Source: Nitrospirota bacterium (GTDB lineage: Bacteria > Nitrospirota > Thermodesulfovibrionia > UBA6902 > DSMQ01). From it: a DNA stretch of 64,000 nucleotides. Below are positions 40,526-43,075 of this stretch, piece after piece. The notes beneath the pieces are model-generated. The model was not told the origin of the DNA. It worked only from the letters and a program-made list of their open reading frames with translations, and did no database searches. The stretch spans positions 3,760 through 67,759 of the forward strand of contig JACRGX010000002.1 in NCBI GenBank assembly GCA_016212185.1, read 5' to 3'. Each line of letters opens with the position of its first letter. Within the stretch, counting starts at the first letter, position 1. The position numbers and the translations under genes are program-made.

Positions 40526-43075
40526 ATGGTAACTTTAACAATTAACGGCAAACAAATTGAAGCTGTAGAAGGCACGACCATTCTTGAGGCTGCGCTGAAA
40601 AACGGCATCAGGATTCCAAACCTCTGCTATGACAGAAGGCTCAAGCCTTATGGCGCATGCAGGTTGTGCGTTGTTGAAGTGGAAGGTCAGCCGAGGCTTT
40701 TTGCTTCATGCTCAAGCCCGGTCACTGCAGGCATGGCGGTAAAAACTGATACGCCGAAACTGAGGAAGGCGCGCCAGACAGTGCTTGAGCTCATGCTGGT
40801 GCACCATCCTCTGGACTGCCCGCTATGCGACAAGGCCGGCGAGTGCGACCTTCAGGACTTTGCATACGACTACGGTAAACCTGAAGCGCGCTTTATCAGA
40901 CACCGGAAAGAAGCGCCTCCTGATGTAAGGGGTCCACTGGTAGAGCTGACTGCAAACAGATGCATTTTATGCGGCAAATGCGTGCGGCTGTGCGATGAGC
41001 ATCAGGGCCGGGGAGCATTAGGGTTTATCGGCAGGGGATTTTCTACAGTGGTCCAGCCTGCTTTCGGCGAAATACTTGAATGCGATTACTGCGGGCAGTG
41101 CATAGATGCATGTCCTACCGGCGCGCTTCTCAGCAAACCGTATAAATTCAAGGCAAGGCCCTGGTTCCTTGATGAAAAAGATACCATATGCCCGTTCTGC
41201 GGCTGCGGCTGCACCCTGACTCTCGGAATTCGGGATGGAGAAATATTAAGGTCACGGGGAGTAGAAGGCAGGGGACAAAGCAAAGGCAATCTCTGCGGCA
41301 GGGGCAGATTCGGCTTTGATTACATTTACAGCAAAAACCGCCTGAAGACCCCGCTGATTAGAATAAAGGATAAAAAAGAGGGTTCAAGGATTCAAGGATT
41401 CAAGGATTCAAGTGAAAAACTCGACCCCTCGACCCCTCGACCCCTCGACCCCTTTCCAAGTTTTAGAGAGGCTTCCTGGACTGAGGCGTTGAATTACATC
41501 AGCGAAAACCTCCGGTCTATTTCAGAACAACACGGGCCGTCTTCCATAGGCGCCATAGGCTCGCACAGATGCGCTAATGAAGATAATCATATGCTGCAAA
41601 AATTCATGAAGCACATTATCGGCTCAAACAATATTGACTCATCGGCAGCCTTTGGCTATGCAGTTGTTGAAAAGGCATGGGAAACGGCCTTCGGTCAAAA
41701 ATGCCACAGCATTAACCTTAAATCCCCGCTTGATAAAGAAGCCATTCTGATAGTTGAATCCGACCTGACTGTTACGCATCCGGTATTCGGGCTGAATATC
41801 TTACAGGCCAAAAGGGAAGGTTCAAAGCTTATTGTTGCCGACAGTAGGGAAACAAAACTTACAAGACACAGCTCGCAGAAGCTCAGGATAAAACCCGGGA
41901 CAGGCATAGCCCTGCTTAACGGAATAATGAAAATTATAATGGACAAAGAGCTCTTTGATAAAGAAAAGGTATCGGGTATTGCAGGTTTCTCAGCGCTTCA
42001 GACATTATTAGATGATTACACCACTGAGAAGGTCTGCAGGATTACCGGATTAACAGAAGCAGAGCTGACAGCAGCCTCTGAAACATATGCCCGCGCCAAA
42101 AGCAGAATGATTTCCCTCACAATAAGCGCTTCGGAGAACACCAAAGGCATGGATACCGTTCTTGCCGCTGCCAATCTTATCTTACTGCTTGGCGACAGCC
42201 ACAGCTCGCTTCAAATACCTGCGGAATATTCAAACAGCTTCGGCGCATATCACCTTTTGAACGGTTTAAACAATTCAAGCACAGGAAAAGATATTTTTGA
42301 AATGCTTTATAACCCGGACTCTATCAGGGCATTATATATCATGGGAGAAGACCCTGCGCTCAACTTCCCGGACACCTCAAGTATAATAAATAAGTTGAAG
42401 TCTTTGGATTTTCTGATTGTTCAGGACATAGCGCTTACTGAAACCGCAAAATTAGCGCATGTAGTCCTGCCTGCGTCAAGCTGGGCTGAAAAAGACGGAA
42501 CATTCACCAATGCCGAAGGGCTTAACCAGCGGCTGCAAAAAGTAATTGACACGGCAGAACAGCCTCTTCCTGACTGGAGGATATTGAAGGACCTTGCTTT
42601 ATGCATGGGGAAAGACACAGGCATAAGAAACATTGAAGATATTACCAAAGAAATAACTTCATCCTTCAACCCTCAACCTTCAACCCTCAACCCTCAACCT
42701 TGTTTTAGTCCGGTTAGTTACGCCCCTGCCGAAAAATCAGACAGTTATCCCATATCCCTGATACTCAGGGATATTCTTCAGCACTCAGGGAGCATGTCTG
42801 CACGGTCAAAATCACTGGACCTGGTGGCATCCGAGGCAATTCTTGAGATAAATGAAGAAGATGCCAAAAAACTCGGCATCACAGACAACAGTCATGTAAA
42901 AGTAAGTTCAAGCCGTACCAGTGTTTATCTTAAGGCAATGGTTTCCGACGAAATCCCGGAAGGCGCAGTGTTTGTCTCTGCACATTTTCCCCATGCAAAA
43001 ATAAACACCCTGACCTCTCCCTTCTTAAACGGCATGCCCTCTATCACCATGGTAAATATAGAAGCCGTGAAGTAA
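40526..43075 (+). CDS. NuoG / FdhA-like subunit (2Fe-2S, 4Fe-4S, MopB and molybdopterin-dinucleotide-binding domains) lacking the Cys/Sec Mo ligand
   Basis: The N-terminal FeS domains and MopB CPFCGCGCTL cluster are intact. Where FdhA has NNVDHCARYUHSATVAGL...GSGAMTNS this protein reads NNIDSSAAFGYAVVEKAWETAFG. Start reassigned to the ATG at 40526 (GAAAGG RBS), outside the upstream hairpin. Confidence 0.75.
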   Translation: MVTLTINGKQIEAVEGTTILEAALKNGIRIPNLCYDRRLKPYGACRLCVVEVEGQPRLFASCSSPVTAGMAVKTDTPKLRKARQTVLELMLVHHPLDCPLCDKAGECDLQDFAYDYGKPEARFIRHRKEAPPDVRGPLVELTANRCILCGKCVRLCDEHQGRGALGFIGRGFSTVVQPAFGEILECDYCGQCIDACPTGALLSKPYKFKARPWFLDEKDTICPFCGCGCTLTLGIRDGEILRSRGVEGRGQSKGNLCGRGRFGFDYIYSKNRLKTPLIRIKDKKEGSRIQGFKDSSEKLDPSTPRPLDPFPSFREASWTEALNYISENLRSISEQHGPSSIGAIGSHRCANEDNHMLQKFMKHIIGSNNIDSSAAFGYAVVEKAWETAFGQKCHSINLKSPLDKEAILIVESDLTVTHPVFGLNILQAKREGSKLIVADSRETKLTRHSSQKLRIKPGTGIALLNGIMKIIMDKELFDKEKVSGIAGFSALQTLLDDYTTEKVCRITGLTEAELTAASETYARAKSRMISLTISASENTKGMDTVLAAANLILLLGDSHSSLQIPAEYSNSFGAYHLLNGLNNSSTGKDIFEMLYNPDSIRALYIMGEDPALNFPDTSSIINKLKSLDFLIVQDIALTETAKLAHVVLPASSWAEKDGTFTNAEGLNQRLQKVIDTAEQPLPDWRILKDLALCMGKDTGIRNIEDITKEITSSFNPQPSTLNPQPCFSPVSYAPAEKSDSYPISLILRDILQHSGSMSARSKSLDLVASEAILEINEEDAKKLGITDNSHVKVSSSRTSVYLKAMVSDEIPEGAVFVSAHFPHAKINTLTSPFLNGMPSITMVNIEAVK
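41380..41453 (+). repeat. In-frame tandem nonamer insert (GGATTCAAG)3-(CTCGACCCC)4 within the NuoG/FdhA-like CDS
   Basis: Encodes GSRIQGFKDSSEKLDPSTPRPLDP. A near-identical copy lies in the paralog at 55112..55184. Confidence 0.8.

Follow-up and report, generated by a model that had tools for sequence, protein, structure and literature searches.

What becomes of a formate dehydrogenase (FDH)-like subunit that has lost the residues of its catalytic site, and to what partner does it pass electrons? These questions are raised by a gene at positions 40526–43075 of a 64,000 nt stretch of contig JACRGX010000002.1 (assembly GCA_016212185.1), from a Nitrospirota bacterium; this whole stretch is referred to here as the window, and the gene as G*. 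G* is the last gene of an operon that also encodes NuoE-like, ferredoxin and NuoF-like proteins (the last designated NuoF*). We interpret its product, with a probability of roughly 60%, as a catalytically dead iron–sulfur wire of the NuoG clade, within a Bfu-type module that would act as an alternative electron-input (N) module of complex I, the product of the nuo genes.

The open reading frame (ORF) of G* runs unbroken from an ATG at 40526 to a stop at 43075, and a deposited protein from a Nitrospirae metagenome-assembled genome (MAG), P0001, is 100% identical to its product. Pfam identifies Fer2_4, NADH-G_4Fe-4S_3, Fer4_Nqo3, Molybdop_Fe4S4, Molybdopterin and Molydop_binding in that order, which is also the domain order of the FDH alpha subunits FdsA (PDB 6tg9) and the selenocysteine (Sec)-containing FdhA encoded elsewhere in the window. 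The motifs correspond to one [2Fe-2S] cluster, four [4Fe-4S] clusters and a domain like those that bind molybdenum–bis(pyranopterin guanine dinucleotide) (Mo-bisPGD), lacking the metal ligand. An earlier examination of this DNA, the sequence-only reading, had reported both the shared domain order and the replacement of the catalytic segment, and both observations hold: a 20-residue segment contains no Cys, Sec or His. Within it, Gly377 (41654–41656) occupies the Sec/Cys position and Tyr378 that of the His, and in a gap-free stretch of the HMMER alignment with Rhodobacter capsulatus FdsA (6tg9_A) these two residues lie opposite Cys386, the Mo ligand, and His387. The catalytic Arg of FDH falls opposite Ala or Glu by MAFFT and BLAST; the BLAST register is off by one, which gives Glu.

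The loss is a property of the whole family. A search of 5.8 billion proteins recovered at least 120 orthologs at 63–72% identity, and the motif columns were read from MAFFT alignments. Among the 120 orthologs listed, the Sec/Cys column holds Gly in every one, the His column holds Tyr in 116 and the Arg column holds Ala in 118, with Glu at the next column in 116. A scan of GTDB species genomes added 80 loci, to give 84 loci and 92 gene copies in all, in which the ligand column holds Gly 91 times, Ser once and Cys or Sec never; when orthologs and locus copies are pooled, the count is 211 Gly and one Ser out of 212. The replacement motifs are themselves near-invariant in the family (DSSAAFGY, LQIPAEY[AS]NT[YF]G and ESD.S.THP). 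All source-named orthologs among the matches listed come from Nitrospirae or Thermodesulfovibrionales MAGs, and 79 of the 80 added loci are titled Nitrospirota or unclassified bacterium; the family is conserved across sulfate-reducing Nitrospirota.

Two trivial explanations for the missing ligand were examined and rejected. A Cys occurs in 'QKCHS', 13 residues past the segment free of Cys, Sec and His, and might have been a shifted ligand; the corresponding column is mostly Gly, Ala, Asn or Thr in the 120 orthologs, hence the Cys is not conserved (the following His is kept in 117 of them). A frameshift or sequencing error that masks the canonical motif is rejected because more than 200 homologs have the same replaced motif; the other two frames at 41600–41720 are also full of stops and do not contain it. 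That G* is a decaying fdhA copy, or an artefact of sequencing or assembly, might be read from its lost catalytic residues and repeat-derived inserts. We give this idea practically no credence, and conservation refutes it: the 849-codon ORF is intact, the orthologs share many invariant columns, synteny is conserved and no other frame restores the motif. The loss is not decay, because the orthologs and locus copies all lack Cys or Sec at the ligand position, and the pattern of conservation indicates a dead active site under purifying selection rather than a pseudogene.

A further possibility is that G* remains a Mo- or W-bisPGD enzyme that works without a protein ligand to the metal, in the manner of arsenite oxidase, on another substrate. 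Arsenite oxidase provides a precedent for a Mo site of this kind, motifs for nucleotide binding survive in G* (for example, 'MGEDP' and 'VQDI..TETA..LPA..AEKDGTFTN'), and the AlphaFold model contains a complete, FDH-like Mo domain with a confidence score (pLDDT) of around 90. It should be noted that the model is confident for this domain only, with the Fe-S domains below 50, and it was used for fold ranking and to assess disorder of an insert. The Mo-bisPGD residues were compared at the positions that are at least 95% invariant among 60 true FDHs. Of these positions, the G* family keeps 39 of 46 in the N-terminal part that holds the Fe-S sites. The Fe4S4 domain keeps 13 of 14, and its one loss replaces with Arg, in 40/40 family members, a Lys that we take to be the bridge between the Fe-S cluster and the pterin. 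In the Mo/PGD domains, by contrast, 78 of 167 positions are kept and 89 (53%) are changed or deleted, with two segments of about 20 and 30 residues missing. Altered motifs include DPR to DSR, MG.TQH to.S.SEN and TGR to.RD, and the C-terminal K.PE.K is lost. Residual Mo/W activity appears unlikely because so few of the Mo/PGD positions are kept and two segments are deleted; G* does not have an intact bis-PGD site of the arsenite oxidase kind, and its match to arsenite_ox_L is weak and partial. We regard a surviving Mo/W enzyme as the slimmest of the functional alternatives considered here.

While the catalytic site has been lost, the iron–sulfur sites have been kept. In a 47-sequence family alignment every cluster ligand is invariant, the His-ligated site included. 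The N-terminal motifs of NuoG are all present, namely N1b ([2Fe-2S]), N5 (His-Cys3) and N4, and the Cys pattern recurs in NuoGs encoded within nuo operons of related genomes; the five cluster motifs also match the A1–A5 clusters of BfuA-type subunits. Like NuoG/Nqo3 (TIGR01973), G* therefore combines an N-terminal [2Fe-2S] cluster, a His-ligated [4Fe-4S] cluster and N4- and N7-type clusters with a C-terminal Mo-bisPGD-like domain that has neither a Cys nor a Sec ligand. Unlike NuoG, it keeps a second cluster in its ferredoxin-like domain. The proposal in the sequence-only reading that G* retains just the Fe-S wire fits these data well, as every member examined keeps all the Fe-S ligands and lacks the Sec/Cys, the His and the Arg.

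The same reading had described G* as a degenerate FdhA paralog, and here the evidence points elsewhere. Source annotations of the orthologs vary between NuoG, FdhA and molybdopterin oxidoreductase. On the NCBIfam NuoG model (TIGR01973, cut-off 470.05 bits) G* scores 442.8 bits, in an alignment split by its insert, and the ortholog P0002 also falls short (460.7 bits); three insert-free orthologs narrowly exceed the cut-off (P0024, 471.8; P0043, 476.4; P0029, 480.2), and in-operon NuoGs from related genomes reach 490–495 bits. On the Fdh-alpha model (TIGR01591, cut-off 666.25) G* scores 435.1 bits and the orthologs 468–481 bits (472–481 for the insert-free orthologs that pass as NuoG), all far below threshold. 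The C-terminal 635 residues, which comprise the Fe4S4 and Mo-like domains, were searched exhaustively with HMMER against 1.84 billion cluster representatives. The G* family ranked first, followed by a gap in score and then by true FDHs (Cys...Arg) mixed with many ligand-less proteins of 850–900 aa, which often carry 'NIDSxARxG[YFH]'. In a neighbour-joining tree (613 Mo-domain columns, 100 bootstraps), G*, 17 ligand-less representatives and two in-operon Nitrospirota NuoGs were separated from 60 FDHs, sampled from one subfamily, in 100/100 replicates. The G* family was monophyletic with the same support, so that the degenerate copies do form a clade, a point that the sequence-only reading had proposed to check, and the synteny of the module is conserved across loci. 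The grouping with NuoG-type proteins also counts against residual Mo/W catalysis. We conclude that G* is a NuoG-clade protein with a Mo-like domain much less diverged from FDH than those of textbook NuoGs, and that it varies a familiar type of iron–sulfur electron wire without being a new enzyme or a new class of system.

The in-frame repeat insert that G* shares with the Sec-containing FdhA might be taken as a sign of recent duplication. Its presence in both genes was correctly noted in the sequence-only reading: nearly identical DNA occurs in the FdhA gene at about 55100–55200, in the same loop, and the two copies form an inverted repeat (I1) of 158 nt at 91% identity, with a tract of about 41351–41508 against 55056–55213. 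However, the other displayed members of the G* family lack the insert, while all 13 of the closest FdhA orthologs (P0121–P0133) have hypervariable, low-complexity inserts in this loop, flanked by 'LIRI...F(R/K)E(A/V)SW', and G* of the window has flanks of the FdhA type. The loop, which lies between the Fe4S4 and Mo domains, is thus an insertion hot spot; the insert is predicted to be disordered (pLDDT <50, residues 282–309), which fits its being tolerated. A second shared region of about 180 nt covers the nuoF*–G* spacer and the first codons of G* (91–92% identity of 40360–40550 with 56011–56188, the nuoF–fdhA spacer; inverted repeats I2 and I4). The start that it encodes, 'MVTLTI', is of the FdhA lineage, where the G* family consensus reads 'MIELTI', and the spacer hairpin folds with z = -7.7. 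To judge from these alignments, the insert and the start are better explained by two short gene-conversion tracts running from the FdhA operon to the G* operon, and because conversion accounts for it, the insert is not evidence of close paralogy. Over their full length G* and the Sec-containing FdhA are 39% identical. A second in-frame array in G* falls in a variable loop around which the family consensus is undefined (Table 1).

Repeats of this kind are widespread in the window. A census with Tandem Repeats Finder (TRF) returned many arrays with periods of 7–10 nt, mostly intergenic and often arranged as inverted pairs that form hairpins (z = -7.7 and -4.9), at 24838–24873, 34535–34569, 38422–38521, 40372–40511, 41379–41453, 42657–42701, 44108–44144, 52581–52682, 53261–53289, 55111–55185 and 56050–56177. 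Three of them are in frame within genes: G* holds two, and the gene for Sec-FdhA the third. The arrays look like a family of octamer-repeat elements akin to repetitive extragenic palindromes or miniature inverted-repeat transposable elements.

The Sec-containing FdhA, which serves here as comparator and as donor of the conversion tracts, lies outside the G* module in a Bfu-type FDH operon of its own, with NuoE and a HydB-type NuoF. Because genes for a cyclic nucleotide-binding protein and formate–tetrahydrofolate ligase follow fdhA, the operon suggests a tie to the Wood–Ljungdahl or another C1 pathway. Public gene calls split this FdhA at its TGA codon, as in the 541 aa fragment P0159. The window also encodes an AIR-synthase family protein (AIRS and AIRS_C domains) that by size and domains fits the selenophosphate synthetase SelD, consistent with Sec in FdhA.

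The genes preceding G* define the module to which it belongs. In order, the operon encodes DRTGG, HATPase_c_2, DRTGG, PHP, HATPase_c, REC-GcvH-like and REC-NuoE proteins, a [2Fe-2S] ferredoxin, NuoF* and G*. The arrangement of the last four had been read correctly from the sequence, with the refinement that the NuoF is of the HydB/Bfu type: NuoF* has an N-terminal thioredoxin-like [2Fe-2S] domain, a flavin mononucleotide (FMN)/NADH domain, an N3 cluster and a C-terminal pair of [4Fe-4S] clusters, the domain set of BfuB. A canonical NuoF of 420 aa, from the locus L086, gave no matches for the additional domains. REC-NuoE has a receiver with the canonical D9–D10, D53, T82 and K103, followed by a NuoE/HydC [2Fe-2S] domain with the four Cys of BfuC-type subunits, and this two-domain architecture was found in all 120 homologs listed. 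The REC-GcvH-like protein likewise has the full set of phospho-acceptor residues, and no lipoyl-lysine motif is evident in the sequence of its GcvH-like domain. In most loci the REC-GcvH-like gene is kept upstream of REC-NuoE, the small ferredoxin gene lies between those for NuoE and NuoF*, and the five-gene DRTGG/HATPase/PHP set travels with the module, either before or after it.

Variants of the module were seen in several genomes. A tandem second NuoF–G pair, of a distinct G* subfamily with the motif 'SEAFGY..NAL' and 56–59% identity, is positioned directly upstream of the main pair at six loci (L011, L013, L016, L026, L073 and L074; for example, L013:5640–8102). Several genomes carry two unlinked copies of the module, such as those at L062 and L064 in CP070632. 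A direct repeat of about 145 nt (about 85% identity, with 27 nt at 100%) links the regulator block of the module in the window (35388–35530) with the spacer between a BNR/sortilin-like protein gene and the 136 aa ORF upstream of it (46828–46963); both copies are intergenic, and the repeat has no match in Rfam.

Table 1. Coordinates of G*, its sites, the surrounding module and other features of the window
Feature	Position	Strand	Evidence or detail
G*, NuoG-clade subunit, 849 aa	40526..43075	+	Pfam; at least 120 orthologs; PDB alignment; NCBIfam
Fe-S ligand region of G*	40622..41305	+	47-sequence family alignment
N1b-type [2Fe-2S] site of G*			C34/C45/C48/C62
His-ligated N5/A3-type site of G*			H93-H94/C98/C101/C107
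Two [4Fe-4S] clusters of G*			Eight Cys across C146–C196
N7/A5-type site of G*			C222/C225/C229/C257
'DSSAAFGY' in place of FDH active-site 'DHCARY-U-H'	41636..41659	+	
'LQIPAEYSNSFG' in place of FDH 'VNPLRGQNNVQG', catalytic Arg gone	42209..42244	+	MAFFT, BLAST
Repeat-derived in-frame insert in G*, 8-nt arrays GGATTCAA and TCGACCCC, encoding IKDKKEGSRIQGFKDSSEKLDPSTPRPLDPFPSFRE	41363..41470	+	
Second in-frame short-period array (TCAACCC)n in G*, part of 'FNPQPSTLNPQPCF', variable loop	42657..42701	+	TRF
nuoF*–G* intergenic hairpin element and first G* codons ('MVTLTI'), probable second conversion tract	40360..40550	+	
NuoF*, HydB/BfuB-type flavoprotein, 608 aa	38534..40360	+	Pfam, Cys pattern
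Small thioredoxin-like [2Fe-2S] ferredoxin, HydD-like, 127 aa	38035..38418	+	Weak Pfam/NCBIfam matches
REC-NuoE fusion, 305 aa	37115..38032	+	Pfam, sequence
REC + GcvH-like fusion	36222..36992	+	Pfam, sequence
Accessory/regulatory block typical of HydABC-type operons	33319..36156	+	Pfam; DRTGG 33319–33693, HATPase_c_2 33697–34128, DRTGG 34148–34492, PHP 34633–35382, HATPase_c 35623–36156
Sulfate-reduction cluster adk, sat, aprB, aprA, qmoA, qmoB, qmoC, H+-pyrophosphatase hppA	21326–33130	-	
Sec-FdhA, genuine	53270..56035	-	In-frame TGA at 54908–54910; Pfam; orthologs named formate dehydrogenase alpha
Bfu-type FDH operon	50780–58467	-	NuoE 57955–58467; HydB-type NuoF 56187–57968; Sec-FdhA; cyclic nucleotide-binding protein 52691–53221; formate–tetrahydrofolate ligase 50780–52543
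AIR-synthase family protein, 347 aa	2265–3308	+	AIRS + AIRS_C
c-di-GMP-I riboswitch	47640–47719	-	Rfam RF01051, 52.4 bits

The sequence-only reading left the partner of the module open, and offered the dihaem cytochrome c encoded downstream of G* (43160–43903) or a partner encoded elsewhere. The cytochrome is a poor candidate and was rejected: its sequence contains a signal peptide and two CxxCH motifs, and the synteny survey revealed no homolog of it beside G* at any other locus. Some indication of the partner comes from orthologous modules, which occur inside or beside nuo operons. In L001/L002 (Nitrospirae GWF2_44_13) the genes run nuoABCD, histidine kinase (HK), REC, REC-NuoE, ferredoxin, NuoF*, G*, DRTGG, HATPase, DRTGG-like, PHP, HATPase and nuoHIJKLMN, and the module is the sole E/F/G set of the operon. 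The G* of this species is 68% identical to that of the window and occupies the nuoG slot between nuoF and nuoH, so that nuo-embedded copies are among the closest relatives of the window gene. In L086 the same block, of 12 genes, interrupts a nuo operon between the canonical nuoE and nuoF–nuoG, and in L072 the block directly precedes a second nuoF–nuoG pair and then nuoH–L; at both loci the nuoF-to-nuoH slot is held by the canonical pair. The module of L008 directly precedes a complete nuo operon, and in 20 further species a divergent nuoA–D(–E–F) operon abuts the HK and REC genes of the module. Altogether, linkage to nuo was seen at 23 or more of the 43 informative species loci, and outside the module and its regulators no recurrent partner gene other than nuo was found across the 84 loci. 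Given that two species carry this module within a nuo operon, one of them with no other E/F/G set, complex I is probably its partner. Cultured Thermodesulfovibrio have been reported to encode an 11-subunit Nuo that lacks NuoEFG (PMC5165239).

Several observations weigh against this interpretation. With regard to the NuoG-clade assignment, G* itself scores below the NuoG cut-off, the ligand-less proteins could have been drawn together on the neighbour-joining tree by shared relaxed constraint or mutual attraction, and the best PDB sequence matches of G* are NAD-dependent FDHs, which are closer than any solved NuoG. Solved NuoG chains align to residues 1 to about 283 only, and Foldseek ranks the G* model nearer to FDH (TMq 0.64–0.65) than to NuoG (0.48–0.55). 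As for the partner, no nuo genes were found in the 64 kb window, where G* consequently does not occupy a nuoG slot and the genes upstream of the module are adk, sat, aprBA and qmoABC. Moreover, every linked nuo operon with a readable E/F/G region, except that of L001/L002, encodes its own nuoE, nuoF and nuoG, and a second input module beside these is not obviously needed.

The main rival follows from the latter points. The module may be a stand-alone, soluble Bfu-type NADH:ferredoxin module in which G* serves as scaffold and wire, with a third partner, soluble or membrane-bound, other than complex I; it might then be tied to sulfate reduction or to the Wood–Ljungdahl pathway. Besides the window, 20 informative loci have no nuo gene within reach of the module, and Bfu enzymes are known in which non-catalytic A subunits pass electrons to extra subunits (PMC9304861). 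In the window a sulfate-reduction cluster lies directly upstream of the module in divergent orientation, and adk–sat also adjoins it in L087 (P0009). Yet the survey of loci revealed no other conserved partner gene, and in the nuo operon of L001/L002 the module stands as the only E/F/G set. We consider a soluble module with another partner rather unlikely on balance, though the most serious competitor to a role in complex I.

If G* does belong to a complex I input module, a plausible route for electrons can be proposed. REC-NuoE, the small ferredoxin, NuoF* and G* make up a flavin/Fe-S module of the Bfu (HydABC-like) type, which works with NADH and, probably, ferredoxin. NADH, and possibly reduced ferredoxin as well, would supply electrons that enter at FMN, pass along the cluster chain of G* and leave at the His-ligated N5/A3 cluster for NuoI/NuoB and then menaquinone; reverse electron flow may also be possible. 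To judge from the REC-NuoE, REC-GcvH and DRTGG/HATPase/PHP genes, phosphorylation may control when the module is used. The data show the lost catalytic residues, the kept clusters, conservation throughout the family, the clade placement and the linkage of the genes to nuo; that the module docks on complex I in the present organism, that it confurcates ferredoxin and that it is under phospho-control are inferred.

The unusual density of signalling domains invites a different explanation, in which the proteins form a redox-sensing complex, comparable to the sensory hydrogenases, that reports NADH or ferredoxin status without bulk electron flow. A dead catalytic domain would suit such a role, as would two REC fusions, two HATPase proteins, DRTGG and PHP domains and, often, an HK/response regulator pair. 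REC domains, however, are receivers of signals and not sensors, the complete FMN and nine-cluster chain is conserved, and the module replaces NuoEFG in L001/L002. A sensor is in our estimation improbable, if marginally less so than a residual Mo/W enzyme.

Returning to the complex I hypothesis, we can also envisage that Thermodesulfovibrionia have two interchangeable inputs, a canonical NADH-only NuoEFG and the REC-NuoE/ferredoxin/NuoF*/G* set, with phosphorylation of the receiver in REC-NuoE deciding post-translationally which of them is active or attached. The Bfu-type module would then couple both NADH and ferredoxin to menaquinone, or run in the opposite direction, and L086, with both modules in one operon, and L001, with the new module only, would be evolutionary snapshots. 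This proposal is tentative, and we hold it to be possible but doubtful; if true, electron input to a respiratory complex would be under the control of a phospho-switch.

The module has clear affinities with known systems. Schut et al. (2022) predicted a 'Nuo-Bfu' class, a bifurcating-type complex I, in Nitrospirae and other phyla, with BfuB of clades 38 and 39, Nitrospirae included, and BfuABC-type E/F/G genes placed centrally in a nuo cluster of 14 genes (PMC9304861). The mid-cluster position of E/F/G in L001/L002, the extra clusters of BfuB and clusters A1–A5 of BfuA, A3 included, all resemble this class. A receiver fused to BfuC, a REC-GcvH gene and the DRTGG/HATPase/PHP block are not mentioned for Nuo-Bfu in that work, nor are canonical nuoEFG in the same operon (as in L086) or detached copies like that of the window described there. 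When the literature was searched for a REC domain fused to NuoE, or for Thermodesulfovibrio with a NuoEFG-like module, nothing specific was found. The REC-NuoE and REC-GcvH-like proteins, the travelling HydABC-style regulators, the coexistence with canonical nuoEFG and the detached copies seem to be undescribed so far.

With respect to individual families, the likeness to NuoG/Nqo3 extends to orthologs that take the place of nuoG in nuo operons and score just over the curated cut-off. In contrast to NuoG, G* has as its operon partners a HydB-type NuoF and a NuoE that carries a REC domain. It shows no linkage to nuo in the window and, in related genomes with a readable linked nuo operon, usually coexists with a canonical NuoG. 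Operons for HydABC and NiFe-HydABCSL similarly interleave genes for a small 2Fe-2S ferredoxin and HATPase proteins with the E/F/A genes, and in A. mobile the holoenzyme does not contain the ferredoxin and hisK-like ATPase that these genes encode (PMC9304861). The operon of G* differs in the covalent fusion of receivers, one to NuoE and one to a GcvH-like domain, and modules of this family often have an HK and response regulator next to them. QrcB of the Qrc menaquinone reductase, to which G* has a weak NCBIfam match, offers another case of a Mo-enzyme fold used as a non-catalytic subunit, with a structural or electron-transfer role, in a quinone-linked respiratory complex, although G* is of another subfamily, cytoplasmic and differently partnered.

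Two other regions of the window were recorded. A c-di-GMP-I riboswitch lies upstream of the 136 aa ORF (46920–47330) and the 882 aa BNR/sortilin-like protein gene (44151–46799), the product of which has a MopE-type metal-binding motif. At 16392–20899, a toxin–antitoxin-type cluster encodes two HepT-like proteins, one nucleotidyltransferase (MNT) and two PIN-domain proteins in a region of low GC content (0.34–0.37) that could represent an islet of mobile or defence genes.

Automatic annotation labels these genes "formate dehydrogenase alpha", "molybdopterin-dependent oxidoreductase" or "NuoG", and counting them as formate dehydrogenases makes metabolic reconstructions of subsurface sulfate-reducing Nitrospirota wrong. 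For specialists in bioenergetics, the relevance of the family is moderate. If the module docks on complex I, it would represent a testable case of ferredoxin-coupled, Bfu-type electron input to that complex and of a respiratory enzyme with a subunit under direct two-component control. The resemblance of G* to FDH, which is unusual in the NuoG clade, may also help to trace the origin of the complex I N module from soluble modules of the FDH or hydrogenase type.

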